A DNA stretch of 64,000 nucleotides from Porphyromonadaceae bacterium UBA7207 (GTDB lineage: Bacteria; Bacteroidota; Bacteroidia; Bacteroidales; Muribaculaceae), in assembly GCA_002490635.1 (NCBI GenBank), contig DKUJ01000022.1, forward strand, positions 7,146 through 71,145. Direction: 5' to 3'. This document shows, in pieces, positions 5,420 to 56,107 of the stretch (within the stretch, counting starts at the first letter, position 1; the number at the start of each line of letters is the position of its first letter). The notes under the pieces are model-generated. The model did no database searches. It was given only the letters and a program-made list of their open reading frames with translations, and was not told the origin of the DNA. The position numbers and the translations under genes are program-made.

Positions 5420-5833
5420 ATGAAATCAGTAGCAGCAATCTTAGCAGTGCTGGCCGTAGCGTCCGTGTCATGCTCCGGCCGACACGGCTACGACCCGGCG
5501 ACCTGCGAGGAGCTGTCGATAAAGATAGAACGTCACGACAGCCTCACCCAGACCGACTATTCGGCCATGATAGACCAGAACGAACAGATTCTACGCTACC
5601 TCATCGAGGAAAGCGAACGACTGCAGGACACTCCCGACGACGAACGGTATGCCGCCTTTCGCGAACTGCTTGCCGAGCCTGTATACCGCGAGCGTTTCAG
5701 CTATCTGTTCACGCTCGGATCGGCCCTATACCAGGCCGACGAACTCGGACTTCTCGACAGAAGCAATGCCAGAGCATACCGGCGCCTCGACGAATACAAC
5801 GCACGTTTTGCAGCCATTTCCGACCGCATGTAA
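5420..5833 (+). CDS. Small helical lipoprotein, unknown function
   Basis: Lipobox ASVS-C after a hydrophobic stretch; 137 aa ORF. Confidence 0.7.
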   Translation: MKSVAAILAVLAVASVSCSGRHGYDPATCEELSIKIERHDSLTQTDYSAMIDQNEQILRYLIEESERLQDTPDDERYAAFRELLAEPVYRERFSYLFTLGSALYQADELGLLDRSNARAYRRLDEYNARFAAISDRM

Positions 5834-5837
5834 GTTA

Positions 5838-6689
5838 TTACCCTCGGCCTGCCGTAGCTGCGAAATCCGCGGCGATATAGCGCGCAACAGCATCGGTGTA
5901 GTTGGCATCTATGACTTCGTGGGCCGCAGCCTTCACCTGCGGCATGGCATTGCCCACAGCTACCGCAATGTCGGCCACTGCAAACATGGGCAGGTCGTTC
6001 AGATTGTCGCCGAACACCACAATGCGTTCCGCACCCTCGGCCTTGGCGACACGCCGTATGGCGCTGGCTTTCGACACTCCGGGAGCGAGCACTTCAAGAT
6101 TGTAGATATCGCTGTTGAAAATGTCGGGATAGCACGAAACCGAGCATTCCGTGCTATCGCGAACCATTTGTGCAAGGGCTTCGACGGGGCCGCGTTCGCC
6201 CATGGCGAAAAATAGCATGGCGCGGCCTGTGGAACGTTCCGGCACGGGAGTGCCGAGATGGAAGCGTTTCAGCGCCACATGGCGGCGTTCGAGCCAGAAA
6301 CTTTCCTCGGCGCGGTTGAGTGTCTTTCCGGAATGGTAGACATCGAGAGTGCGCCCCTCGGGCGACTGGATGTAGACAAACGGATGCACACCGTGCATGG
6401 CTCCCATATCCAGCAGCAGCCGGCTGTCATCGGCTCCTATGAAACATGAATCGACAAATTCGCCGCGGGTGCGGTTCCAACCGGCGGCACCTGTCATCAC
6501 TATATAATCGACTCCTGTTGCCGCATGTGCCATCAACGGAACCACGGTGGCCGGAGTGCGCGCCGTAGCCACGGTTATCAGGGCACCTCGGGCGCTGAGT
6601 TCTGTAATCAGTTCAGCGCTGCGCTGGCTCACCCGGCTGTCGCTGCCGAGCAGCGTGCCGTCGAGGTCGCTTACATAGAGTGTTTTCAT
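5838..6689 (-). CDS. HAD-superfamily Cof-type hydrolase
   Basis: Motifs DLDGTLL, TAR, GVSKA, FGDNLND. Start placed at the ATG overlapping the upstream stop (ATGA). Confidence 0.9.
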   Translation of the reverse strand: MKTLYVSDLDGTLLGSDSRVSQRSAELITELSARGALITVATARTPATVVPLMAHAATGVDYIVMTGAAGWNRTRGEFVDSCFIGADDSRLLLDMGAMHGVHPFVYIQSPEGRTLDVYHSGKTLNRAEESFWLERRHVALKRFHLGTPVPERSTGRAMLFFAMGERGPVEALAQMVRDSTECSVSCYPDIFNSDIYNLEVLAPGVSKASAIRRVAKAEGAERIVVFGDNLNDLPMFAVADIAVAVGNAMPQVKAAAHEVIDANYTDAVARYIAADFAATAGRG

Positions 6690-7930
6690 TGTTCTGTGGG
6701 CAACCACCGGTAAAGCCTGTCGGCAGGGCGTATTTTCGCCGGCACGGCAATTGAGAACGCATCGCCTTTAACGGCTTTTTCCACACTCTTTCCTCCCACA
6801 CGGATATCGTCGGCACGTACAATCAGAGCTCCAGTGGTGGGGCCTGTTATCACCACCTCATCGCCTCGGACAAGCTCGCCGGCTTCCATGAGGAATTCTC
6901 CCACACCGAGTTTCGAGAAGTATTTCACACCTTTGGCCGCGTACTGTTTCACACGCGTTGCCGAAGAGCCGTATCTGGCGCTCCATTCACCCAGGCGCTG
7001 CCCGAGATAATATCCGTTCCAGAATCCGCGGTTGAATATCTTTTCAAGCCTGCTGTTCCACTGCTCCACCTTCTCCTGGCCATAAGTGCCATCGCACAGC
7101 GCCTCGAGAGCCTCGGAATAGCATTCCACGGCTGTGGCAACATATTCAGGACCACGCGCACGACCCTCGATTTTGAACACTCTGACTCCCGCATCTGCCA
7201 TGCGGTCGATAAAATGGATGGTCTTGAGGTCTTTGGGAGACATTATGTATTTGTTCTCCACGGCAAGGCTTTCGCCGGTTTCCAGGTCGGTGACCTCGTA
7301 GCCGCGGCGGCATATCTGTGTGCATGCCCCGCGGTTGGCGCTGGAGTTCATCTGGTGAAGCGATAGATAGCATTTTCCCGACACGGCCATGCACAAGGCA
7401 CCGTGGCAGAACATTTCTATTCTCACAAGTTCGCCACGCGGTCCGCGGATATCTTCGGCTGTAATGGCGTCGGAAATAGCCTTCACCTGGTCGAGACTCA
7501 GCTCGCGGGCAAGCACCACCACGTCGGCAAAAGCGGCATAGAACCGCACTGCCTCGATATTGGAAACATTGCATTGTGTGGATATGTGCACTTCCACGCC
7601 CTGCCGGCGGCATTCCGATATAACGGCTATATCCGAGGCTATCACCGCTGTGATTCCTGCGGCGGCAGCAGCGGCTATCGTTTCCCGCACAGCCTGCAGG
7701 TCGTTGTCGTAGACTATGGTATTTACGGTAAGATACGTTTTCACTCCCGCTCCGGCGGCTATGGATGCTATGTTCCGCAGGTCGTCGAGGGTGAAATTGG
7801 CACTCGAGCGCGAACGCATGTTCAGCCCCTGCACACCGAAATAAACGGCATCGGCACCGGCGGCAATGGCAGCCGACAACGAATCGTAGCTGCCAACGGG
7901 GGCCATTATTTCAAAATCACTTCTTTGCAT
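6686..7930 (-). CDS. U32 family protein (TrhP/PrtC-like, 4Fe-4S-dependent hydroxylase/peptidase)
   Basis: EIMAPVGS..., AGADAVYFG, VLARELS, EMFCHGALCMAVSGKC, NRGAC.QICR, FKIEGRAR motifs. Confidence 0.9.
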   Translation of the reverse strand: MQRSDFEIMAPVGSYDSLSAAIAAGADAVYFGVQGLNMRSRSSANFTLDDLRNIASIAAGAGVKTYLTVNTIVYDNDLQAVRETIAAAAAAGITAVIASDIAVISECRRQGVEVHISTQCNVSNIEAVRFYAAFADVVVLARELSLDQVKAISDAITAEDIRGPRGELVRIEMFCHGALCMAVSGKCYLSLHQMNSSANRGACTQICRRGYEVTDLETGESLAVENKYIMSPKDLKTIHFIDRMADAGVRVFKIEGRARGPEYVATAVECYSEALEALCDGTYGQEKVEQWNSRLEKIFNRGFWNGYYLGQRLGEWSARYGSSATRVKQYAAKGVKYFSKLGVGEFLMEAGELVRGDEVVITGPTTGALIVRADDIRVGGKSVEKAVKGDAFSIAVPAKIRPADRLYRWLPTEQ

Positions 7931-8011: not shown

Positions 8012-8395
8012 TTATTGCTGGGCGGGTGTTTCCACTTCTTCGGCTTCCACTACTGTGGCCTCGGTTTCAGGAACGGTAACGGGTACCACATCCATCTGGC
8101 CGGGAGCCGGAAGCGCGGGAGCGGCTGCCGCCGGAGCCTGGGGAACGGCACGGAGCTCGGAAGCGTTGTTGACACGGGGAGCGGTCCATACGGATACTAT
8201 GGACAACACCACCAGCAGAGACACCAGCACCCATGTGCCTTTTTCGAGGAAACTGTTGGTCTGGCGTACGCCCATCACGTTTCCGGCGCCACCGAACTGG
8301 CTGGAGAGACCGCCGCCTTTGCTTTTCTGTATCAATACTATTCCTATGAGCAGAATCGATACCACTACAATAAGGGCTATTATTACGATGTGCAT
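8012..8395 (-). CDS. secG: Preprotein translocase subunit SecG
   Basis: LIQKSKGGGLSSQFGG...FLEKGTW signature with two TM helices. Confidence 0.95.
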   Translation of the reverse strand: MHIVIIALIVVVSILLIGIVLIQKSKGGGLSSQFGGAGNVMGVRQTNSFLEKGTWVLVSLLVVLSIVSVWTAPRVNNASELRAVPQAPAAAAPALPAPGQMDVVPVTVPETEATVVEAEEVETPAQQ

Positions 8396-8444
8396 GTCTT
8401 ATAATGTTATTTTTCTAATTATCAATTATTTGGCAACAGCAAAG

Positions 8445-9209
8445 CTATTCTTCGGCCTTTTTGCCGGCTTTGTCTATCAATATCAGTTTCCGCAGAAACC
8501 GCAATTGGTCTGCAAAGTAAGCACTTTTTTTCGGAAATTTCAAGTTTAGCGACGAAATAATATCGTAGGCACGCTGATATTTACCTTGCCTGATATAGAT
8601 TTTCGCCAGCGATTCGCTGAGCAGGGAATCGGCCGGTTCGTCAGCCGGTTTTTTCAGTGGCTTCGCCTTCGGTGCAGGCTGTGGCGCAGGCTCGGGCCGG
8701 TGATGCTGCGCCGCCGGATGCCGACTGAGAATAAAGGCATCTATACGCCCTTCGGGACTGTCGGCATCGACCGGTTCGGAAGGCAGATGTTCCTGTTCCT
8801 CGCGGGCGAGCACTTCGCCGTAGTCGGGAGTGGGATTGAATATCATGCGTTCGAGCATCGCGTCCTCCGCAGGGCTGCTGTGGCCGTAAGTCTGCAAAAA
8901 AAGGTCTATCACATTCTCTGTTGCCGGCGATTCGTTTTCCTCAGGCGGATAGAAGCCCGCAAAGTCGCCGCCTCTGGCGCTTTCTATGGCATCGGCATTG
9001 TCGGAAGCGAGCATGATTTTCATCTCCAGACTGCTGCGCTGTTCCCTGTCCAGCGACGGGCTTCGCAGCATGAGCATATCTATCGCCGTGCAGTATGGAA
9101 AAGCCTTGGATGCGCGGGCGAGGACCGCCATGTCGTCGGCCGACGGTGCCGACACGCTGCCGGCATATCTGCGCAGGATAGCGCCTGTAGTCTGTAATAA
9201 TTCTTCCAT
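8445..9209 (-). CDS. Conserved Bacteroidota protein with C-terminal TPR-like motif
   Basis: SESLAKIYIRQGKYQRAYDII..L.LKFPKKSAYFADQ, typical of the gene between lptE and secG; start at MEELL. Confidence 0.8.
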   Translation of the reverse strand: MEELLQTTGAILRRYAGSVSAPSADDMAVLARASKAFPYCTAIDMLMLRSPSLDREQRSSLEMKIMLASDNADAIESARGGDFAGFYPPEENESPATENVIDLFLQTYGHSSPAEDAMLERMIFNPTPDYGEVLAREEQEHLPSEPVDADSPEGRIDAFILSRHPAAQHHRPEPAPQPAPKAKPLKKPADEPADSLLSESLAKIYIRQGKYQRAYDIISSLNLKFPKKSAYFADQLRFLRKLILIDKAGKKAEE

Positions 9210-9211
9210 TA

Positions 9212-9739
9212 TCACCAGTCGCCCAGGGTGGAGTTGAAAATAAGATCTACAAGCTCCTTGCATATCTCCTGACAGAGACCGTCCTGCACGTCGGTGAGCA
9301 TCTCGCTGCTGGTGAAGTCCCGGTAGGCGCTGAATGTCTGGTCGAAGTCCTTGCCGTCGACTTTGGTATCTGTGTATTTCACGCGCACCGATATGGTGAG
9401 ACGTGTCATGGAGCCGTAGCCGTCTTCTGTCACCGCCTGCGGTGTGAGGTTGTAGCCGGTGATTTCGCCTTCAAGCCGGAGGTCGGAAAGGCCGTCGACA
9501 GTCTGCAGGCGTGTGTTGCGGGTTATGTAGTTCTGCAGCTCGTTCTCGAACATAGGCTGCAGGGGCGGATACACCAGTGCCGCACGAATCGGGAACTCGC
9601 TCACGGATATCGTGCGATATACATTGTAGTCGATGGATGTGCCGTTCGGCGTAAACCTTATCTTGCAGGCTCCCGCAACAACGAGAACACACAGCATTAC
9701 AAGCGCCGGCAACGTCCGGGAGTATTTATTCGAGTCCAT
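9212..9739 (-). CDS. lptE: LPS assembly lipoprotein LptE family
   Basis: Lipobox AGA-C; LRLEGEITGY...TRLTISVRVKY...LVDLIFNSTLGDW. Confidence 0.85.
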   Translation of the reverse strand: MDSNKYSRTLPALVMLCVLVVAGACKIRFTPNGTSIDYNVYRTISVSEFPIRAALVYPPLQPMFENELQNYITRNTRLQTVDGLSDLRLEGEITGYNLTPQAVTEDGYGSMTRLTISVRVKYTDTKVDGKDFDQTFSAYRDFTSSEMLTDVQDGLCQEICKELVDLIFNSTLGDW

Positions 9740-10985
9740 ATTCTTTTATTTTGCGGTATAGAGTGCGTTCCGATATCTGGAGTTCCGCGGCTGCCGCCTT
9801 ACGCTTTCCTTCGTTGCGCCGCAGAGAATCCTCTATTGCCTGTTTCTCCGTCTGCTGCATTGTGGCCGGAACGCTGCTTTCTATAGTCTCCACTTCCTCG
9901 CACACCACATCGGCACAGCTGTTGCCTATATCCTTCTCTTTTTTGTCCAATACAATGAGAGCCTTGGCCGTGTTTCCTTTTTTGTCTTCAGGGGCTACCG
10001 ACTGTTCGCTGAGCATGCGGTTGGCGGTCTCGGCATGCGGATGGCTGTCGCTGCGGCGCTGAAGCTCATCGACACGCCGCTGGAGATTCAGAATCATTCC
10101 CAGAAGCATGTCGCGCTCGCGGCTGTAGCTGTGTATGCTGTCGTCGTCGCGTGTGGCCGGCATGTATGTCTGCGATGCCGCCGGCAACGCCTCTTCCACG
10201 GTATCGGCCTCTACACGGCTTCCGGCATGGAAAAGGGCAATCTGGTCGATGATATTCTTAAGCTGTCGCACATTTCCCGGCCAGCGGTAGCGGCGCAGTA
10301 AAGCCATTGCCTCCGGCGAATAGCTCACAGGGTCCACGCGGTAGCGTTCGGCAAAATCGCTGCTGAACTTGTAGGCAAGCAGGTCTATGTCGGCACCGCG
10401 TTCGCGAAGCGGAGGCACAACTATCATCACTGTCGATAACCTGTAGAAAAGGTCTTCGCGGAACCGGCCCTCGGATATGGCTTTCGGAAGATCCACATTC
10501 GTTGCCGCCACAATCCTTACGTTTGTGCGTCGCACCTCAGAAGAGCCTACTCTGAGATACTGGCCGCTTTCGAGCACACGAAGCAGTCGGGCCTGCGTGG
10601 TAAGCGGCAACTCTGCAACCTCGTCGAGAAAGATTGTGCCACCGTCGGCTTCCTCGAAATATCCCTTGCGGGAATCGACAGCACCGGTGAAAGCGCCCTT
10701 CTCATGGCCGAAAAGTTCGGAGTCGATGGTGCCCTCTGGAATGGCACCACAGTTCACTGCTATATATTTTCCATGCTTGCGCGAACTGAAGGCATGGATG
10801 ATTTGCGGAAAGAATTCCTTGCCGGTGCCACTTTCGCCGCACACAAGCACCGACAGGTCGATTGGCGCCACCCTCACAGCCCTCTCCAGAGCTGCTGTGA
10901 GAGCCGGAGCATTGCCGACAATTCCGAAGCGCTGGCGGGCCTGCTGCACCGCAGCCGACGGACGGTTGGTTTTCTCTGTCATCAT
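9726..10985 (-). CDS. Sigma-54-dependent Fis-family activator lacking an N-terminal receiver domain
   Basis: Walker A GESGTGKE, GAFTGA loop, FLDEV, FREDLFYRL, WPGNVRQL, C-terminal HTH (ISERTLYRKIKEY). Confidence 0.95.
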   Translation of the reverse strand: MMTEKTNRPSAAVQQARQRFGIVGNAPALTAALERAVRVAPIDLSVLVCGESGTGKEFFPQIIHAFSSRKHGKYIAVNCGAIPEGTIDSELFGHEKGAFTGAVDSRKGYFEEADGGTIFLDEVAELPLTTQARLLRVLESGQYLRVGSSEVRRTNVRIVAATNVDLPKAISEGRFREDLFYRLSTVMIVVPPLRERGADIDLLAYKFSSDFAERYRVDPVSYSPEAMALLRRYRWPGNVRQLKNIIDQIALFHAGSRVEADTVEEALPAASQTYMPATRDDDSIHSYSRERDMLLGMILNLQRRVDELQRRSDSHPHAETANRMLSEQSVAPEDKKGNTAKALIVLDKKEKDIGNSCADVVCEEVETIESSVPATMQQTEKQAIEDSLRRNEGKRKAAAAELQISERTLYRKIKEYGLE

Positions 10986-10989
10986 AGTG

Positions 10990-10997
10990 CAAAGATA
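10990..10997 (-). promoter_or_regulatory. Bacteroidota -7 promoter element (TATCTTTG) for sigma54-activator operon
   Basis: Exact TAnnTTTG match; the ATG begins 5 nt downstream. Confidence 0.7.
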
Positions 10998-11044
10998 CTA
11001 TTTTTTCGCCGTTCGCTGCTGTTGTTCCAGCCTGGACCTTGTGG

Positions 11045-11990
11045 TTCTGAACATGCTTTTATTCCTGTTATCTCTCCAATCATAGAAAATATAATACAAA
11101 GGAATAATAATAATAGCTGTCGATATGTATGAAATCCCGTAGGATACGATATCCGCTCATTGCTTATAAAAGACCTGTTTATTATTTTACACACTTTATC
11201 TACATTATATATTGCAGATATATAATAGATTAAGCATGTTATAAACACTATGTTGATAACGCAGATATCCTGTTGTTTGATAACGTCAAGCGTTGACAGT
11301 CCGTCTGATTGTGGTCTATAAGCAGGAAAATAACATTGATATCCATACAATAAAAAGACGACCGGAAACCTTGACTTTACAGAAACAGTGCGGCTTAATA
11401 AATGACGGCGGGATTCCAAAGTATATCTACCGAGAATTTGTCGCGTCCTTATTGACACCGGTATCATAGCCGGCCATAGCTTATGGTACGATTAGAAACC
11501 GGCGGAGATTTCTTTTCTATTCTTCCTTCATCGGGTTTCTGTCGACAGTTCCGGGTTTTCAACATGCCTTTATTATTATAGTCTTCTTTGTTTAAAAAAA
11601 ATTATTTTGAAAGAAAGACACAGGAAGAATAATAATGGCTGTTGATATGTGCGATAACTTTTTTGCTGTTTCCTTGACTTTATGGGTTATTGATGTCCGG
11701 GTTATGAATTTGCACACTTTATTGACATGCTATATTGCAGATATAATGTGTGTTGGATGTGTTATCTACATAGTGTTGATAATGTTGTGTTTTGATAATT
11801 TGATAACTTCAGGCGTTGATAAACCTATAGATTACGGTCTGTTCCGGTAGATAACCGCATTGATATCTATGTGAGAAAAAGAACAGCCATAGACTTGACT
11901 TTTCCGAAATTGTACGGCTTAGCACATAATTGTGCAATTTCAAAATATAGTTTTCAGTAACTTATTCCGGCATTATCAACAGCGGTTGTC
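11045..11990. repeat. Diverged tandem direct repeat, two units offset 523-524 bp (about 11045-11465 and 11556-11990)
   Basis: Co-linear anchors: ACACTTTAT 11191/11714; TATATTGCAGATATA 11208/11731; TGTTGATAA 11251/11774; TTTGATAAC 11276/11799; CATTGATATC 11334/11858; CTTGACTTT 11370/11894; CGGCTTA 11391/11915. Confidence 0.9.
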
Positions 11991-11995
11991 AATAA
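11045..11995. other. Candidate chromosomal replication origin (oriC): AT-rich region with DnaA-box-like cluster and DnaA-trio-like runs
   Basis: TTATCAACA at 11251(rc), 11774(rc), 11973; TTATCTACA at 11196, 11762; TTATTGACA at 11449, 11719, 11987(rc); further variants at 11118, 11556, 11640, 11814, 11846; (TAT)n/(ATA)n runs beside boxes; no credible CDS. Confidence 0.7.
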
Positions 11996-12058
11996 GTGTC
12001 AGTGAGATTTTCTCCGTTTAAAACGGACAAGATCTGTCTCACTCGGTGGTATGTAAAT

Positions 12059-12095
12059 AAAAAAGGCTGCACCGTGAATATACGGCACAGCCTTT
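12059..12095 (-). terminator. Terminator of the T9SS protein gene
   Basis: AAAGGCTG..CCGT/ACGG..CAGCCTTT stem, with a T6 tail on the minus strand. Confidence 0.75.
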
Positions 12096-12117
12096 GATGT
12101 ATCAGCGGAGGTATAGC

Positions 12118-13698
12118 TTAGCGAACGTAAACTTTGGTAACGTTGCTGCCCTGGCGGCGGATATAGATGCCGGCTTCGGGGTTGGCTACGCGCACGCCCT
12201 GGAGATTGTAGAATTCAACGGGAGCTTCATTGTCGACAGCTACGGATTCGAGGCCGCTGCCTTTTTTCACGAAGAGTGTGGGCAGGAGAACTTCAGCGGC
12301 ATTTACGCTGGGAGCGATGTTGTTGTACCATGTACCTTCAGCACCTTTGGTAACGCCTACCAGACCGGTGTTGCCTTCGGCGGTGAGGGAGATGGAAGCT
12401 TTGCCGGCGGTGAAGCTGATTGTCCAGATGCAAAGGGGGCTTACTTCGGTGTAGAGCTGGAAGGAAGTGGTGTGGGTGCCGTCGAAGCCGAGATAGCGGC
12501 CATAGGAGTCCTTCATGGTGTATCCTTCGCCTTCGGCTTTGATGGTGATGGCGTTCTTGACATCGCTGGTGAGTTCGCCGTTGGTGATGGTAACGTCGGT
12601 GAGGCTGAGGCGGCCGAATGTGGAGCTTTCGGAGATAACGGTGCCGAGCTTGTCGTTGGCTACCATTACATATTCGGCACCGGAAGCGATGGCGGCGGTT
12701 TCAACGAAGATAGCTTCGTTTACCGGAGGAATAACCACTTCGCCCTGGAGTTTGAAGAGCTCGGGTTTGGCGGCATTCTCGGGGAGCTCTTCGGGCAGGT
12801 AGCATCCGAAGGAACCGAAAGCGGGATCCTGATAGATGGAATGGCCGGTAGCGATGTTGGTGATGGTGGCCACGCCGGCATCGAAGCTTACAGTCCATAC
12901 GCGGTTGTCCGCGCTGTCGTCGGTGGTGTCGAATGTCTTGTATCCGGTTTTGGCACCAAGCATTTTTCCCTGTGCGGTCTCGATGGTGTAGCCACCCTGT
13001 ACGGCAGTGAATTTAAGGGCATAGGAAGCGTCGCCTGCAAAAGAGGTGGCTGTTGCGCCGGCGGGGAGATTGGTGGAGCTCATGTAGCCGTAGTTTTTCT
13101 CAAAGAGCATGTTGTACATGCCACCTGCTACGAATACATAGCTCTGGCCGCTTTCAACGGCTGTTGCCTTGAAGTAGTTGGGTTCGGCAGGCTCGGGGGG
13201 AGTGATTCCGCCAAGTTCGCCGCCGCCAACGATATTCATGCTGGTGAAGCAGAACTGGCCGGCTTTGGATTCACCATCGGTACCGTATGTTGCCTTTTCG
13301 CCCACGGTGAAGGTAACTTCAGCGGCGTTGCCGGTCCAGGTAACAGTCCAGTCGCCTTCGGCAGGATTGCTGATGGTAACGTTGCCGTTGCTGGCGGTAA
13401 TGTCGGTGAGGCGTTTCTTGCCCTGCTTGGAAATGTTGAACACCATGGATGTGATGTCGGCACCGCTGGTAACGGTGAGGGTGTTCTTGGCATAGAGGCG
13501 CAGGTCCTTGTTGTTTGCGTTGTATGCAGGCTTTGTGGTGCCGCCATTCTGGTCGGCAACGAACTTGAAGTCGGTACCTGCGGTGAACTCGGTAGGATTG
13601 GCACCCAGCTCGAGGTCGGCGAATGTCACTGTGGTGTCGGCCAGTGCGGAACCTGCACACAGCAGGCCGGCAGCCATGCTTAGTAAAAGTTTTTTCAT
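12118..13698 (-). CDS. Secreted protein with two internal repeat domains and T9SS C-terminal sorting domain
   Basis: Signal peptide MKKLLLSMAAGLLCAGSALA; C-terminus VEFYNLQGVRVANPEAGIYIRRQGSNVTKVYVR; repeats starting YFKATAVESGQSYVFVA and IFVETAAIASGAEYVMVA. Confidence 0.9.
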   Translation of the reverse strand: MKKLLLSMAAGLLCAGSALADTTVTFADLELGANPTEFTAGTDFKFVADQNGGTTKPAYNANNKDLRLYAKNTLTVTSGADITSMVFNISKQGKKRLTDITASNGNVTISNPAEGDWTVTWTGNAAEVTFTVGEKATYGTDGESKAGQFCFTSMNIVGGGELGGITPPEPAEPNYFKATAVESGQSYVFVAGGMYNMLFEKNYGYMSSTNLPAGATATSFAGDASYALKFTAVQGGYTIETAQGKMLGAKTGYKTFDTTDDSADNRVWTVSFDAGVATITNIATGHSIYQDPAFGSFGCYLPEELPENAAKPELFKLQGEVVIPPVNEAIFVETAAIASGAEYVMVANDKLGTVISESSTFGRLSLTDVTITNGELTSDVKNAITIKAEGEGYTMKDSYGRYLGFDGTHTTSFQLYTEVSPLCIWTISFTAGKASISLTAEGNTGLVGVTKGAEGTWYNNIAPSVNAAEVLLPTLFVKKGSGLESVAVDNEAPVEFYNLQGVRVANPEAGIYIRRQGSNVTKVYVR

Positions 13699-49731: not shown

Positions 49732-51348
49732 ATGTCAAATTCACCCGGACAAACAAAAGCGACAGTCAGGCAGGCTGCCAAAATGGGGGTGTTCACGCTC
49801 ATAATAATGAACATCGTGGCGGTTGTCTCGCTGCGAGGACTGCCAGCGGAAGCCGAATATGGAGTAAGCTCCGCATTCTATTATATACTTGCAGCACTTG
49901 TTTTCCTGATACCTGTATCTCTTGTGGCCGCCGAACTCGCGGCCATGTTTCCCTACCAGCAGGGCGGTATGTTCCGCTGGATAGGCGAGGCCTTCGGCGA
50001 CAAGGCCGGATTCCTGGGCATATGGCTGCAGTGGATAGAGAGCACCATCTGGTATCCTACGGTGCTGACGTTCGGTGCCGTGTCGCTTGCCTTCATAGGC
50101 ATGGACCATGTGTTCGACATGCATCTTGCAGCCAACAAGTACTACACCATCGTAGTGGTGCTGGCCATCTACTGGCTCGCTACGCTGATATCACTCAAGG
50201 GCATGGGCTGGGTCGGAAAGGTGTCCAAGATAGGCGGTCTTGTGGGCACAATCATGCCCGCCGGACTGCTGGTGGTGTGCGCTGTGATATATCTCGCCTC
50301 CGGAGGCCAGTCGCAGATGGACTGGCATGGCAACTTCATTCCCGACTTTTCCAACTTCGATAATGTTGTTCTGGCGGTATCCATTTTCTTGTTCTATGCC
50401 GGCATGGAAATGAGCGGCGTGCACGTAAGGGAAATCAAGAACCCGACAGTCAACTACCCCAAGGCAGTGATTATCGGCGCCCTCGCCACGGTTGCCATCT
50501 TCATTCTGGGCACCTATGCCCTGGGCGTAATCATTCCGGCCAAGGATATCAACCTTGTGCAGAGTCTGCTTGTGGGCTTCGACAACTATTTCACCGGGCT
50601 TCACATAAAATGGCTCTCTCCTGTTATCGCCATTGCTCTGGCATTCGGTGTGCTCGCCGGCGTGCTCACATGGGTTGCGGGACCTTCCAAAGGTGTGTTC
50701 GCTGTGGGTCAGGCAGGCTATTTGCCGAAGTTCTTCCAGCGGACCAACAAGAACGGTGTGCAGAAAAACATACTCTATGTGCAGGGCGCTATAGTCACAG
50801 TCCTTGCGTTCCTCATGGTGCTTATGCCCTCGGTGCAGAGCTTTTACCAGATACTCTCGCAGCTTACCTGCATACTCTACCTGATAGCCTATCTGCTCAT
50901 GTTCGCCGCGGCCTTGCGCCTGCGCTACAAAATGAAGGGCGCACCTCGGCCATACAGGCTCGGCAAGCGCGGCAACGGTGTGATGTGGCTCATAGCAGGT
51001 GTGGGATTCGTGGGTTCGCTTGTGGCGTTCATATTCAGCTTCTTCCCCCCGAGTCAGGTGAATATGGGATCCGATGCGGTATGGTTCACCGTACTGATTG
51101 CCGGCACCCTTGTGTTCGTTGTGCTTCCATTTATAATACTGAAGTTCAGGAAACCGTCCTGGGACTCCATGGGCAACAACTTCGTGCCTTTCAGCTGGGA
51201 CAAGACCCCCGGTGCGGCCGATCTCCGCTTGAGGGCTGCCGAAGAATTCGCCACTGAAAACGCCGACACAACCCCGGACCACGCCCAGGCATTCCTGACA
51301 TACGCCAAATCAATAGAAAAACCAGAAACGCCCGCCGGGAATAAGTAA
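49732..51348 (+). CDS. gadC: Glutamate/GABA antiporter
   Basis: VVSLRGLPAEA, FYAGME, APC-family TM pattern; operonic with gadB and glsA. Confidence 0.93.
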   Translation: MSNSPGQTKATVRQAAKMGVFTLIIMNIVAVVSLRGLPAEAEYGVSSAFYYILAALVFLIPVSLVAAELAAMFPYQQGGMFRWIGEAFGDKAGFLGIWLQWIESTIWYPTVLTFGAVSLAFIGMDHVFDMHLAANKYYTIVVVLAIYWLATLISLKGMGWVGKVSKIGGLVGTIMPAGLLVVCAVIYLASGGQSQMDWHGNFIPDFSNFDNVVLAVSIFLFYAGMEMSGVHVREIKNPTVNYPKAVIIGALATVAIFILGTYALGVIIPAKDINLVQSLLVGFDNYFTGLHIKWLSPVIAIALAFGVLAGVLTWVAGPSKGVFAVGQAGYLPKFFQRTNKNGVQKNILYVQGAIVTVLAFLMVLMPSVQSFYQILSQLTCILYLIAYLLMFAAALRLRYKMKGAPRPYRLGKRGNGVMWLIAGVGFVGSLVAFIFSFFPPSQVNMGSDAVWFTVLIAGTLVFVVLPFIILKFRKPSWDSMGNNFVPFSWDKTPGAADLRLRAAEEFATENADTTPDHAQAFLTYAKSIEKPETPAGNK

Positions 51349-51419
51349 GGCCACTCCGCATATCTGAAATCATTTTATTCCTGCCGGATTAAAGTCTTGA
51401 CCAGACAAACCGGACACAG

Positions 51420-51455
51420 AAAACCTCAGAACTGCGTGGCAGTCTGAGGTTTTTT
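51420..51455. terminator. Bidirectional terminator between gadC and ssrA
   Basis: AAAACCTCAGA-ACTGC / GCAGT-CTGAGGTTTTTT stem. Confidence 0.85.
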
Positions 51456-51477
51456 GTGTCCGAAAAAATGTTTCAAG

Positions 51478-51875
51478 TGGAGCTGGAGGGATTCGAACCC
51501 TCGTCCAAACGCGGAATCAATGAGCTTTCTACGTGCGTAGTTTCAAGTTGATTTTCGAGCTGCGCCAGGCCTGAAACTACCAAACGCAGCCTTATCCTCT
51601 AAGATTTCGGCTTCCTCCCGAGGCTTCCGGAAGCCTATTTCCGATATTCCTGCACCGCCTTGTCGATTAGTCTCGGAAAAAGGACAATCGGGCGATGTCT
51701 TGTCGCTGCAACTGTTGCGGCGATTAAGCTGATCTACTGTACTTCAATCAAGCAGCAAGAGCGTAGTTATTTTCGCCATTTAGAATTGCTGAAAGCCTGA
51801 TATTAAAGAGCATAGACTTCAAAGCTCTGCACGCTTACCCACCGCTTCTACACGCTGTCAAAACCGGTCAGCCCC
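51478..51875 (-). ncRNA. ssrA: tmRNA; tag peptide (A)GENNYALAA encoded at 51777-51748
   Basis: 5' GGGGCTGACCGGTTTTGACAG; 3' T-arm/acceptor GAGGGTTCGAATCCCTCCAGCTCCA; internal GGC GAA AAT AAC TAC GCT CTT GCT GCT TGA. Confidence 0.97.
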
Positions 51876-52012
51876 GTTTTTTTGCGCCATAATCGATGGT
51901 TGTAGTCTGCAAATATATGGATTATCCGCCAAAGAACGTGCATTTTATTGATTTTTAACTACCGGATAAATCAGCTGACATACTACTGTGAATATTAAAT
52001 CTGTTATTCCAT

Positions 52013-54085
52013 TCAGTCGGTGATCATCACCTTAGCGACTTTACCTCTGTTATTGATTATGTATAATCCGGAACGGAGAGAACCGCGCGATATCTCCATA
52101 CCTGACAGATTATATATTTTGCAGTCCGGTGGCAGCAAGTGGATTGAGGTCAGAGAAAGTGTATCCGTATCGCGGATAGTGGTTATTCCACCGGTCTGCC
52201 CTTTATGGAAGGCATGAGCCACGGTCTGCACCACATCATTTCCCGCCGAATCCTTGCATATGAATCTAAGGTCATACCATTTGTCGGCATCAAGCTTGTC
52301 ATGAGGCACTGAAACTTTGCCATATCCATCATTGATGTACTGGTTGTATTCCAGCGGCGTCCACAAATCTTTTTCATGCTCGGAAATCTGAACCAGCGGA
52401 GTGGTTCCAGGCGAATGCTCTATAATAATATGTGAATTTCGAGTTGCGTCTTGCGTCAAATTGCCCGAAGCATCCCTGAGTTGCCATCTGTAGACCTGTG
52501 AATACACGTTATCCAATGAAGTATTGTCGATCATGACCCGGAGGCTGGAAGAATAGCTGTCGGAATATGGCATTTCCACATATATGTCGTAAAGTCCGGA
52601 GACTGCATTATCATTAGATGTCCACGCTATAAAATCGAAGCTGTCGGCTCCCTCTGCTATCGTTTCTCCATTGAATCTGACAGTTATTTTAGCAGGCAAC
52701 AACAGATTGCCCAGACACGGAAACAGACACGAAGTATCGAAATAGATTAGATTTTTATCCTGCCATTCATCATAGGAAAGGCTATATGAGAAACCTACAA
52801 GCGGAGCCTCGTTATAAAACTCCATATCTTCCCTGTATTCAAGGCATAGAGGATAATCCGCGGGGAAGAAGAGTTCATAGTCATTTTCGTCGCTTCGTGT
52901 ATATGCCGGAGGTATGCACCACATGTGCCCATCGGTATCGGTATATATCCATGGCGAAGTCATTGTGCTGTACTGCCGGTCGTATTGGATGTTCCCTTCA
53001 GAATCTGTCCACTCATTGTCGGTATACGAGTAACCGCCTATGCCTGCAAATACAAAATTCCATCCGTCATCCGGGCTGCTCTGTTCCTTGAGAACCGGAG
53101 CGTTGATATACACGGGAAGGTTCCTGCTTTCGGCTTTCATGTCGAATGAATATGCCGATACAGGCATAGTCATGGTAGGTGTGCCGTTCCATACTGTCTG
53201 CGCCGTTATCCCCCCGACACTGGCATCATCTTTCTGGCCGGCAAGATTGCCGGCGAACCTCATATGAACAGGCTCATTGTATAGTTCAGCTCCGTTGTAC
53301 ATGCATCGTGAGTCATCAAAAGGACCATCCGATGTAATGAAATTGATGTATGTGGCCTTTGAATCGGCTGCCACATTATTTACCGATAAAGTCCATTTGT
53401 CGGAAAGATTGTTGACAAAAAACTCTTCATAGCAGATATTAATCATCATCCGTACCAGAGGATAGCTTCCGTCCTTGCGTTTCAGTTCCCGGTAGTACAT
53501 CATGCTGAGTTCGCCGGTTTCATCTTTAAGATTGTCGTACGGAATCTGACTGCCGTCGGGATAGAAAAACTTGCAGCTCAACTTGTTTTTGGCATCCGAC
53601 TGTGTGAACACGTAAGTCATGTCTTCCGATATTTCGATGTCTTCCGCAATCACATAGCTGTCATAGAGAAAGGTATGTTCATCGTCGGGGTCAATATTGT
53701 CGGGACGTATGTCGGAGCGCAGTATAAGGTCATATCTCCCTTTGGGCACCATCAGTTCCCAGCCGAGTCCTTCCTCAATCATGTATTCATCGGGATATGT
53801 GGCCCAGTCGCAAAAGCCGCAATAGTATTTTCCGTCGGGCTGATATACTATCACTTCTTTAGGTTCATATGTGAACCCGGCGGTAGCTTCCTCTTTTACC
53901 TCAAATTTTATTTTCACCCAGTCGGAAGAATCCTCTTCATCATCCACCCGTCCCGCCACGTTAAGATTTGCTGCAACGGGATGGATTACGCTCGTCTGCT
54001 TGCCCGAAGTAGAACCCGTGGCTTGCGTGGAACCTGTGGCCGAAGCCACAACCACAACAAATAAAAAGAACCAGAATCTCATCAT
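52013..54085 (-). CDS. Acidic secreted protein with T9SS-type C-terminal domain, unknown function
   Basis: Signal peptide; C-terminus KIYNLSGMEI...LRSGLYIIN...KVMI; -7 box TAAATTTG at 54111-54118; more AT-rich than flanks. Confidence 0.85.
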   Translation of the reverse strand: MMRFWFFLFVVVVASATGSTQATGSTSGKQTSVIHPVAANLNVAGRVDDEEDSSDWVKIKFEVKEEATAGFTYEPKEVIVYQPDGKYYCGFCDWATYPDEYMIEEGLGWELMVPKGRYDLILRSDIRPDNIDPDDEHTFLYDSYVIAEDIEISEDMTYVFTQSDAKNKLSCKFFYPDGSQIPYDNLKDETGELSMMYYRELKRKDGSYPLVRMMINICYEEFFVNNLSDKWTLSVNNVAADSKATYINFITSDGPFDDSRCMYNGAELYNEPVHMRFAGNLAGQKDDASVGGITAQTVWNGTPTMTMPVSAYSFDMKAESRNLPVYINAPVLKEQSSPDDGWNFVFAGIGGYSYTDNEWTDSEGNIQYDRQYSTMTSPWIYTDTDGHMWCIPPAYTRSDENDYELFFPADYPLCLEYREDMEFYNEAPLVGFSYSLSYDEWQDKNLIYFDTSCLFPCLGNLLLPAKITVRFNGETIAEGADSFDFIAWTSNDNAVSGLYDIYVEMPYSDSYSSSLRVMIDNTSLDNVYSQVYRWQLRDASGNLTQDATRNSHIIIEHSPGTTPLVQISEHEKDLWTPLEYNQYINDGYGKVSVPHDKLDADKWYDLRFICKDSAGNDVVQTVAHAFHKGQTGGITTIRDTDTLSLTSIHLLPPDCKIYNLSGMEISRGSLRSGLYIINNRGKVAKVMITD

Positions 54086-54250
54086 ACATATTTTTTATGT
54101 TCAACGGCGGCAAATTTATCGGGAGGGACGCGGACTTCAAAATTTACATGGGGCATAATAGGGGTACAAGGGGTGACACATGGCGTACAGGCCTGTGTGT
54201 ATGCCTGAAGCGTGTTGTCCGTTGTGGTAAAGTTGAATATATTTGTGTGT

Positions 54251-55939
54251 ATGAAAACTATAAAATTTCTGCTGTGTGTTTCGATTATGATTATTTCCGG
54301 CTGTGGCGTGCGGCCGGAATCGGATTCGCTGTATCGATGGAGGCGGATTCATCCGGCAGCAGATTCGATTGTCTTTGCGCTGGAAGATGGTTTCGTGAAT
54401 TCTGTTCCGGATTCTCTCCTTTGGCCGTTGCTCGACAGTCTGAAGAATACGACGGTAGAAAGAGATGCCGAAAATCAGCATAGAAGCAGGGTGTTGTTCT
54501 GGAAGGCGAGAATTGCCAACCGAAGAAATATAACAGGGAGGGATAGCGTGATAAGAGACCTGACAGATGCGTTGTCGCTATGCGATACGGCTACATATGA
54601 ATACGACTGTTCGCGCATTCGCTATCTGCTTGCTCTTGTGGCCGAGTGCGATCCTCTGGTAAGATTCAGGAGTCTAAAAAAACTTGACAGATATTATTAT
54701 TCTTCGGGCGATGACATGATGACAGCTTCCGTGAGAGTGGATATAGGCCATATCATGGGCGAAATAGGTTATTACGACCGCGCATTACAGTATTATAGAG
54801 AGGCTGACAGCATCTATCGACGTATAGGCATGGAACCGTATGTCAGAAAAAACACATTGAATATGGCCAACGCCTTGGTAGCTATGGGGGATAAGAATGC
54901 GGCACTGGCAATTGTCGATTCTCTTATGAATGACAAAAGTCTGTCGCTGTCGCCATCGTTTCATACCAACCTCCTGCGTGTGGCATATATGGCTTCGGAC
55001 AATGCTGATTATCTGTATGAAGCCGAACGGTATATCGACAGTATTAATCCCCGGTCGCTCGACCGGCTGCCAGTCGAGTTTTATCTGTCGCGATATTGTG
55101 CGGACACCGATGATTCCGCAGGAATGAGAACACATACACAAAGGATGGAGGAATGTTTCGATTCTGCGGCGCATGGCTTCTATTATCCGGAAATGCTTAA
55201 AATCATGGCTCTGACACACGACATATATGGCGGGCGGGACACGGCCCTGTCGTTATACAGGCAATATATTGCGGCAAATGATTCGGCCCGTCTGGTGGAA
55301 AGAGTGAAAGAAATAGCCAATGCGGAAGCCCGGAGTTCCATCCTTAAATACGAATCGGAAATGCGCCACGCGCATAAAATCAAAAGTCTGCGGTTATGGA
55401 TAATCATATTGCTGCTTTTAATACTCATTCTGGCGGTAGTGTGCATTTACATCTATAGGCAGCGCCAGCACAGGCTCACAATTGTGAGGTACGATACCGA
55501 ACTGGCGCATAACAGACGCCGCGTGGTAGCCCAGGAACTTGCCATGACAGAAAAGAACAATGTATTACAGGAGGTATTGGACAATCTGGACAGTCTTAAG
55601 GACAAAGGAATTATATCGGACAATATTTGTCATGAACTTGAGAACAGCATAAAGCTCCATCTGAGCGGACGTCAGAACTGGGATTATTTCATAACGGTGT
55701 TCAATAAGGTGTGTCCTGCATTCGTGAACACGCTGATGCTTAATCATCCTGCGTTGACAGAAGGCGACGTGCGGCTTGCGGTATATATTCGCGCGGGACT
55801 TACATCGAAACAGATTGCACAGATGCTTCTGCTGCAGCCCGACTCTGTAAAGAAAAACCGTCAGCGCCTGCGCAGGAGAATGAACCTTACATCCTCGGAG
55901 TCTCTTGAAGAAGTGTTGTACTCGATTTCCCCGACATAG
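54251..55939 (+). CDS. Membrane-spanning sensor/regulator: exported TPR-like region, TM helix, C-terminal LuxR-type HTH
   Basis: N-terminal MKTIKFLLCVSIMIISGC; TM LWIIILLLLILILAVVCIYIY; HPALTEGDVRLAVYIRAGLTSKQIAQML...SVKKNRQRLRRRM; -7 box TATATTTG at 54238-54245. Confidence 0.9.
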   Translation: MKTIKFLLCVSIMIISGCGVRPESDSLYRWRRIHPAADSIVFALEDGFVNSVPDSLLWPLLDSLKNTTVERDAENQHRSRVLFWKARIANRRNITGRDSVIRDLTDALSLCDTATYEYDCSRIRYLLALVAECDPLVRFRSLKKLDRYYYSSGDDMMTASVRVDIGHIMGEIGYYDRALQYYREADSIYRRIGMEPYVRKNTLNMANALVAMGDKNAALAIVDSLMNDKSLSLSPSFHTNLLRVAYMASDNADYLYEAERYIDSINPRSLDRLPVEFYLSRYCADTDDSAGMRTHTQRMEECFDSAAHGFYYPEMLKIMALTHDIYGGRDTALSLYRQYIAANDSARLVERVKEIANAEARSSILKYESEMRHAHKIKSLRLWIIILLLLILILAVVCIYIYRQRQHRLTIVRYDTELAHNRRRVVAQELAMTEKNNVLQEVLDNLDSLKDKGIISDNICHELENSIKLHLSGRQNWDYFITVFNKVCPAFVNTLMLNHPALTEGDVRLAVYIRAGLTSKQIAQMLLLQPDSVKKNRQRLRRRMNLTSSESLEEVLYSISPT

Positions 55940-56107
55940 ATCTGGAGTGATACATGAGCATCTCTATAGATTGGTTTTCGCCGACAATCGCGCACAATTT
56001 CCTTATAAAATTTTGGCATTGGCAAAAATTGCTTATTTTTGCTGATGGAAGTGCCGGCGAGGCATTTCAGCAATCTAATACTAACCCGCAATCAAGGAAA
56101 AGAATCT

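Follow-up and report, generated by a model that had tools for sequence, protein, structure and literature searches.

A head-to-tail duplication of a predicted replication origin in a genome of the Muribaculaceae

Introduction

To our knowledge, a single origin of replication is generally assumed for bacterial chromosomes, and natural exceptions are very few. The bipartite origins of Bacillus subtilis and Helicobacter pylori consist of DnaA-box clusters that flank dnaA and are not paralogous to one another, with one unwinding element.

Duplicated oriC regions have been described in BCG Pasteur, as identical copies including dnaA-gyrA, and in Acidaminococcus fermentans (dnaA-dnaA) (PMC4403523); these duplications are large, taking in dnaA and neighbouring genes, and the BCG copies are recent. 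Pseudomonas aeruginosa has two origins at separate locations, oriC1 and oriC2, and such a pair is also predicted for Halomonadaceae; one of the two has repeatedly undergone “demise or downgrading” during diversification (Weigel, bioRxiv 10.1101/2025.08.05.668638). In Bacteroidota the predicted oriC, such as that of Prevotella intermedia OMA14 (DoriC/Ori-Finder), is a single unit, commonly far from dnaA (PMC4755523).

Here we analyse an AT-rich gap in a genome of the Muribaculaceae in which an origin-like unit is present twice, as a left copy (unit A) and a right copy (unit B). Like predicted Bacteroidota origins, the unit is a gene-free stretch of ~0.5 kb that contains several DnaA boxes and lies at a switch in GC skew, far from dnaA, but the whole unit occurs twice in tandem and its preferred boxes are TTATC[A/T]ACA instead of TTATCCACA. 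As in BCG Pasteur and A. fermentans, tandem duplication has set two paralogous DnaA-box regions, here predicted origins, side by side on one chromosome; unlike those cases, the duplicated element is a gene-free 0.5-kb unit, the duplication is old (~35% diverged), and the copies are asymmetrically conserved. Two DnaA-box origins on one chromosome also recall P. aeruginosa and Halomonadaceae, and the downgrading of one origin there parallels the apparent decay of unit A, although here the two are contiguous, head-to-tail paralogs. As in bipartite origins, there are two nearby DnaA-box clusters that could cooperate, but the units are paralogous, each has a meltable tract and an AAT-plus-box cassette, and no gene lies between them, since the ORFs over the units are spurious; neither non-homologous clusters, nor an intervening dnaA, nor a single unwinding element is found in the gap. 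The candidate cassettes loosely resemble the basal unwinding system (Richardson et al.; Pelliciari et al. 2021, PMC8287927) in combining a box, a 3-bp G/C-containing spacer, at least three NAN repeats, and an A/T-rich tract, and differ from it in that the candidate trio is AAT, not GAT, and the adjacent box is single.

A preliminary description of this DNA had not recognised the architecture as described. That is too broad, since duplicated oriC regions and dual origins are in the literature (PMC4403523; bioRxiv 10.1101/2025.08.05.668638), but it holds to the extent that none of these is compact, old, and gene-free. A compact, gene-free, old head-to-tail copy of an entire oriC is an unusual form of a known element, and no new type of origin.

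Results

An AT-rich gap between two genes

The window, a stretch of 64,000 nucleotides of contig DKUJ01000022.1 whose positions are used throughout, belongs to a metagenome-assembled genome of 55 contigs, 2.08 Mb, 92% completeness, and 56% GC. The gap and its flanking genes are listed in Table 1. Judged by the sigma-54 activator protein, the closest named relative of the genome is Muribaculum caecicola (69% at the amino-acid level), followed by “uncultured Muribaculaceae” records, and an identical protein is present in many public assemblies. On the other side, the C-terminus of the 526-aa protein reads like a candidate T9SS sorting tail, judging from its sequence, and resembles proteins adjoining the unit in two relatives (G002 and G016); the hairpin and T-run is likely the intrinsic terminator of this gene.

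Other readings of the gap were set aside. The 161-aa ORF over the units is not a gene, its ATG being lost in other strains, between which there are seven amino-acid differences; a 71-aa ORF was grouped with it as spurious. No RNA family was matched when the gap and three related loci were scanned against Rfam. A plasmid similarity search (blastn, distant mode) came back empty and so speaks against the origin of a plasmid or ICE. A sigma-54 or sigma-70 promoter reading of the conserved blocks was rejected because the spacings, judged by eye, do not fit.

Table 1. Coordinates of the doubled origin-like region and its surroundings (positions in the window).
Feature	Position	Strand	Details
LptE gene, beyond the sigma-54 activator	9212-9739		Pfam PF04390
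Sigma-54-dependent activator gene (left flank)	9726..10985	-	Pfam PF00158, PF25601, PF02954
AT-rich intergenic gap	10986..12117		1132 bp, ~36% GC; contains the entire doubled origin-like region
Unit A (left, divergent copy)	11043..11553	+	Delimited by repeats, MAFFT, local alignment
Unit A low-stability tract, candidate unwinding element	11077..11116		Nearest-neighbour ΔG -38.9 kcal/mol per 40 bp
Unit A DnaA-trio-like cassette	11103..11126	+	(AAT)4, AGC spacer, TGTCGATAT (DnaA box, 2 mismatches, reverse orientation)
Unit A box-like sites	11196..11259		TTATCTACA 11196 +; TTATAAACA 11239 +; TTATCAACA 11251 -
Further unit A box-like site	11449	+	TTATTGACA
Unit B (right copy)	11554..12060	+	Orthodox ortholog of relatives' single unit; relatives' DNA matches unit B best
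Unit B low-stability tract with A8 run, candidate unwinding element	11569..11608		ΔG -38.6 kcal/mol per 40 bp
Unit B DnaA-trio-like cassette	11628..11648	+	(AAT)3, GGC spacer, TGTTGATAT (DnaA box, 2 mismatches)
Genus-conserved non-box block	11653..11693	+	gATAACTTTTT..tttCTTGc..TGgGTTATTGA; in unit B, lost at ~11131-11173 of unit A
Unit B box-like sites	11719..11782		TTATTGACA 11719 +; TTATCTACA 11762 +; TTATCAACA 11774 -
Unit B right-hand box cluster	11973..12060		TTATCAACA 11973 +; TTATTGACA 11987 -; TTATTTACA 12052 -
Hairpin and T-run	12062..12095	-	Inverted repeat and sequence; right-hand limit of the origin region
526-aa protein gene (right flank)	12118..13698	-	No Pfam match

The gap contains a diverged tandem duplication

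Units A and B, ~510 bp each, stand head to tail with no spacer and fill the 1132-bp gap. Co-linear direct repeats pair 11043 with 11554, 11093 with 11615, 11159 with 11682, 11237 with 11760, and 11276 with 11799, at spacings of 511, 522, 523, 523, and 523 bp; the seven constant-offset anchors listed in the preliminary description all fall within repeat blocks at an offset of 523-524. MAFFT aligns ~11030-11560 end to end with 11545-12080. Aligned locally, 11040-11520 and 11551-12040 score 105 (346 columns, 68% identity, 24 gap positions), against 21.1 ± 2.4 and a maximum of 31 for 500 dinucleotide shuffles (z = 35), and against 35 for the reverse-complement control. The repeats, the MAFFT alignment, and the comparison with shuffled controls, which had been proposed as the check, thus bear out the earlier claim that an oriC-like unit has undergone a diverged tandem duplication.

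The doubling recurs in other assemblies of the species. Among ENA records, three contigs of 55-95 kb from different studies, of which one is a mouse-gut metagenome, have this doubled gap at 98.8-99.7% identity and share the order EEP, 526-aa gene, 1.13-kb gap, sigma-54 activator; one NCBI contig of 4.8 kb is 98.6% identical and ends inside unit A. As the same arrangement is found in independent assemblies, it is no assembly artefact, in agreement with what had been argued from the divergence of the copies.

Most relatives carry a single unit

A DNA search of relatives found the element in the same genus. Ten species have one unit each, in an AT-rich gap of 370-790 bp, and the gaps of those ten contain no internal repeat. 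A sequence-only profile, R1, was built from these ten species, without this genome. R1 is present in 144 of 158 genomes of the genus (91 of the 94 of high quality) and, across the family, in 116 of 120 high-quality genomes and 27 of 29 sampled genera; in this genome it finds nothing outside the gap. Its matches usually amount to one full-length copy, with a second unit in at least six genomes of the genus. To the question whether relatives have one or two units, raised by the preliminary description, the answer is mostly one full-length unit, with doubling in a minority.

Both units carry DnaA boxes and meltable tracts

Ten TTATNNACA boxes lie in the gap where 0.48 are expected, and none of 2000 dinucleotide shuffles of the gap reaches 10; five of the ten are TTATCNACA, against an expectation of 0.08 (2000 dinucleotide shuffles, none reaching the observed count). 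The gap is the densest DnaA-box-like cluster genome-wide, ranking first of 55 AT-rich 1132-bp intervals, and no other AT-rich interval of the genome approaches its box count. No DnaA boxes were found near dnaA, on contig C26. When strict one-mismatch boxes are counted, a single interval, C28:68020, has more than the gap. We rejected this cluster as an origin: its GC content is 0.48-0.58, it reads as mostly coding, and it lies outside any AT-rich gap.

Box columns are invariant across species (TTAT..ACA / TGTT.A.AA), and in G009 and G015 the column that corresponds to 11239 has the perfect box TTATCCACA, where unit A has TTATAAACA and unit B TTATCTACA. The right-hand cluster of unit B gives a weak partial match to R1 (11934-12011, 8.8 bits), and relatives carry the same cluster.

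The low-stability tracts of the two units occupy homologous positions, and both are beyond the 99.9th percentile of the genome (-42.4 kcal/mol per 40 bp; genome mean -58.0); the tract of unit B is homologous to the tttAAAAAAAATT tract of relatives. The unit B cassette is conserved genus-wide as AATAATGGnTGTTGAtA, adjoining the A/T tract. Published rules for basal unwinding systems specify a box with at most two mismatches, no more than 16 bp from at least three NAN repeats, beside an A/T-rich region (PMC8287927); the cassettes of both units fit these permissive search rules, which are loose in AT-rich DNA.

The unit of a congener lies at the best-fit skew origin

GC skew is weak in the genus (replichore coefficient ~0.015 in G100) and confounded by gene strand, and even sampling resolves positions to ~±0.25 Mb. 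Because raw skew tracks gene strand, coding strands being C-rich, we used regression on ORF strand instead; a raw-skew maximum at ~40 kb of the window was discarded as misleading, since the gene-strand effect dominates. The congener G100 is a single contig of 3,637,252 bp with its unit at 1,370,591-1,370,768. From ±200 kb of contiguous sequence around the unit and 40 evenly spaced 20-kb samples, per-ORF GC skew was regressed on gene strand and a replichore term while origin and terminus positions were scanned. In the best fit the origin falls at 1.36 Mb and the terminus nearly opposite, at 3.04 Mb (RSS 5477 to 5226, n=922 ORFs); once the dense region is thinned to even spacing, the origin lies within 1.24-1.76 Mb, with the terminus still at 3.04 Mb. 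All four rRNA operons, at 520,938 (-), 1,569,799 (+), 1,629,684 (+), and 2,284,610 (+), are directed away from the unit, two of them within 260 kb of it, a polarity that identifies the unit with the origin and not with the terminus.

Signals elsewhere are mixed. On the window's own contig the best skew switch falls at 15-20 kb, with the unit at 18.7 kb, and in G015 the skew clearly turns from minus to plus near the unit; short-flank skew is weak in G017 and G013. Some observations count against an origin: in G005 the local skew runs the other way over the 12 kb that follow the unit, co-orientation of genes with replication is just 51% in G100, and the genes adjoining the unit differ between species of the genus. 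The unit also lies apart from dnaA, which is 1.47 Mb away in G100 and on another contig in this genome, but adjacency to dnaA is not a defining feature of oriC here, given the distance commonly found in Bacteroidota (PMC4755523).

A box cluster above chance, an A/T-rich meltable tract, a skew switch and rRNA polarity (both tested in G100), and conservation among relatives are thus all found. We consider the gap very probably the chromosomal replication origin, oriC, of this mouse-gut member of the Muribaculaceae, predicted to be DnaA-dependent. The oriC-like identity assigned to it previously is upheld by the unique box cluster, the family-wide unit, and the skew switch and rRNA polarity of G100.

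Units A and B are unequal

R1 scores 39.8 bits over the core of unit A (11100-11267) and 94.9 bits over that of unit B (11620-11808, E 1e-28). Of 67 genus-conserved columns, unit A keeps 51 and unit B 63, and 21 single-unit species keep 58-67; the corresponding losses are 16, 4, and 0-9. In the non-box block unit A keeps 7/14 conserved columns, compared with 36/42 elsewhere (Fisher p = 0.011), and it lacks the A-run. Assemblies of the species differ by 12 variant events in unit A versus 7 in unit B, those in unit A including one AAT deletion and substitutions in two DnaA boxes; their flanking coding DNA differs by ~0.2%.

The nearest relative of unit A is unit B, at 62% (next best 56%), and the two share 66% of genus-variable columns in the 10-species alignment, or 56% with the 21 single-unit species, against ~29% between species. 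This closeness and excess of shared variable columns show that the duplication arose in this lineage. The block TATATTGCAGATATA common to A and B is a mark of lineage-specific common ancestry, or of gene conversion, and no conserved site.

We compared the losses in unit A with neutral decay. The 44% difference between A and B at variable columns corresponds to a per-branch change of ~22-28%, from which ~15-19 of the 67 conserved columns would be lost in unit A (an estimate based on ~45 columns), and 16 are. Outside the lost block the 36/42 columns kept are slightly above the neutral expectation (p ~0.07). As a whole, unit A appears to show no excess conservation, and its losses look consistent with roughly neutral decay. 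The suggestion that selection had preserved short sites in both copies is therefore not supported for unit A, whose loss of 16/67 columns is about the neutral expectation, whose genus-conserved block is gone, and whose boxes and AAT run vary among strains of the species. Unit B looks like an ordinary ortholog and unit A like a lineage-specific paralog, apparently decaying. Some function in unit A is possible nonetheless, because it retains the tract, the (AAT)4-plus-box cassette, the main boxes, and 36/42 columns.

Second units have appeared in other species

In G069 two units scoring 98 and 83 bits lie in tandem, ~950 bp apart within a 1.6-kb gap, with ~550 bp of spacer at normal GC between them. 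In G056 the units (76 and 76 bits) are inverted and 2.7 kb apart, flanking the genes for WbqC and signal peptidase (LepB). G100 and G103 have in common a degenerate second unit ~400 bp downstream of the main one, and a second unit on the same contig is also found in G161 and in several genomes of other genera. The two units of G069, those of G056, and those of this genome are in each case one another's nearest relatives, a pattern that points to independent duplications or concerted evolution.

In G069, 61 and 60 of the 67 conserved columns are kept by the two units, which agree at only 43% of variable columns; by our own estimate ~48 columns would be kept under neutrality (p ~0.0005). The G056 units keep 62/67 each, and variable-column identity over G069 and G056 together is 43-60%. 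Since both copies are conserved in these genomes despite their divergence, two constrained copies can persist in the genus.

Discussion

We suggest that the ancestral origin was a single unit of ~500 bp, made up from left to right of a left DnaA box, an A/T tract, an (AAT)n-plus-box cassette, the non-box block, a TTATCnACA array, and a right-hand cluster, and that a head-to-tail duplication of the complete unit took place in the lineage of this species. On balance we favour, with some reserve, unit B as the one working origin and unit A as a relaxed, slowly decaying paralog. Unit B has retained every conserved module. DnaA would fill its TTATC[A/T]ACA array and, starting at the TGTTGATAT box, oligomerise over the GGC spacer along the AAT repeats, opening the A/T tract at ~11569-11640, a scheme modelled on the basal unwinding system (PMC8287927). 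Unit A, with four or five boxes and a meltable tract 0.5 kb away, would be at most an auxiliary cluster for loading or titrating DnaA, and not a second independent origin.

This reading presupposes that the duplication is real and that the gap is an origin. In a metagenome-assembled genome of 55 contigs the doubling might be suspected to come from faulty assembly, or from a chimera between the origins of two strains that occur together; we regard this as vanishingly improbable, since units that are ~65% identical would not be collapsed or mis-joined through shared k-mers and the three independent ENA assemblies carry the same arrangement on contigs of 55-95 kb. The gap could instead be a conserved non-coding element of another sort, such as a datA/DARS-like box cluster that titrates DnaA or serves regulation, a promoter or other regulatory region, or an RNA gene that escaped recognition. 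The true oriC would then lie in the 8% of the genome missing from the assembly. In favour of these possibilities are the incompleteness of the genome (92%), the coarse resolution of the skew analysis, the differing flanking genes, and the separation from dnaA, here by contig and in G100 by 1.47 Mb, although such separation is normal in the phylum (PMC4755523). Against them, the gap is the sole dense box cluster of the genome, with neither an Rfam match nor plasmid similarity; the overlapping ORFs are not conserved, the 161-aa ORF even losing its start codon in other strains; the unit occurs in 27/29 sampled genera, usually in a single full-length copy; and in G100 it sits at the best skew origin, with 4/4 rRNA operons diverging from it. 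Together we judge these non-origin readings quite improbable.

A more serious competitor is that both units function, firing redundantly or under different conditions, or forming one enlarged origin that needs the boxes of unit A for normal timing. Both units have the (AAT)n-plus-box cassette, a tract of extremely low stability, and the central box array; apart from the lost block, 36/42 conserved columns survive in unit A; the doubling is fixed in all examined assemblies of the species; and G069 and G056 keep both copies at 60-62/67 columns. We nevertheless find it unlikely in this genome, where unit A scores 39.8 bits to the 94.9 of unit B, falls with its 51 columns below every single-unit species (58-67), lacks both the genus-conserved block and the A-run, and is polymorphic within the species in its boxes and AAT run, with a total loss that fits neutral decay. 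Of the doubled origin with two homologous units envisaged in the preliminary description, the duplicated oriC-like unit therefore stands, and function in both units finds partial support, unit A looking relaxed (51/67 columns to 63/67). For this window alone, the likely answer is the modest one, a working origin and a relic.

The genus as a whole offers a graded natural series, from single units in most species, through an old pair with one decaying copy (this genome, G100 and G103), to pairs in which both copies are conserved (G069, G056). Such a series could reveal how origins duplicate, which modules an active copy needs, and how arrays of DnaA boxes grow. The profile also gives a usable oriC signature for Muribaculaceae, an abundant gut family that is genetically poorly tractable; it could aid estimates of growth rate from metagenomic peak-to-trough ratios, and the construction of replicative vectors. 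More speculatively, and we think this a long way from the likeliest outcome, Muribaculaceae may tolerate and sometimes even select for doubled origins, with unit A binding DnaA and firing or tuning initiation and with both units active in G069 and G056. If the units of those two genomes are indeed both active, they would be natural adjacent dual oriCs that have arisen repeatedly by duplication of the origin.

Paired origin units in congeners and their neighbours

Two congeners carry paired origin units in which both copies are full-length, each retaining 60-62 of the 67 genus-conserved columns. The pair in G069 is arranged in tandem, and that in G056 is inverted around WbqC-LepB. Of a genuinely doubled origin these two genomes are better candidates than the window. 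In L139, a locus from a further Muribaculaceae species (uncultured Muribaculaceae iMGMC-520), a homolog of the window's sigma-54 activator gene is followed about 2.2 kb downstream by the origin unit, so the window is not alone in having its origin near this gene cluster. Elsewhere in the genus, NadA-LeuRS is the commonest neighbour of the unit.

Two ORFs within the window's origin units are annotated as genes in public ENA contigs. The start codon of the longer is absent from other strains, and both are likely annotation artefacts.

The right-hand end of unit B holds an inverted repeat whose 22-nt arms are 77% complementary and separated by 1 nt; no clear counterpart is seen in unit A. Elsewhere in the window, GC content falls to 45-49% across about 5 kb, against about 57% in the surroundings; this stretch may be a horizontally acquired segment.

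Coordinates of origin units, ORFs and other features in the window and congeners
Feature	Location	Position	Strand
161-aa ORF	window	10982-11467	-
71-aa ORF	window	11635-11850	+
Inverted repeat	window	11998-12042	
Low-GC stretch	window	51000-56000	
G069 origin unit, first copy	L115 (G069:C11)	5703-5892	
G069 origin unit, second copy	L115 (G069:C11)	6652-6839	
G056 origin unit, first copy	L116 (G056:C13)	5670-5858	-
G056 origin unit, second copy	L116 (G056:C13)	8392-8579	+
iMGMC-520 origin unit	L139	6442-6621	-
G100 origin unit	G100:C1	1,370,591	
G100 dnaA	G100:C1	2,845,311	

dnaA position and GC skew

In the complete congener G100, dnaA and the origin unit are 1.47 Mb apart, an extreme dnaA-oriC separation, and dnaA lies about 0.2 Mb from the inferred skew terminus (about 3.04 Mb). 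The same contig holds 13 weak matches to the DnaA AAA+ domain (positions include 80019, 189767, 319867 and 3294548), in ORFs of about 262-270 aa, 11 of the matches having equal scores; an insertion sequence that has multiplied in G100 is the probable source, with these ORFs as its IstB-like helpers.

Gene strand is the dominant influence on GC skew, both throughout the window and in the contigs of relatives: coding strands are C-rich (strand coefficient -0.03 to -0.06). Only about 51% of genes in G100 are co-oriented with replication. Finding origins by naive cumulative skew would be misleading in this genus.
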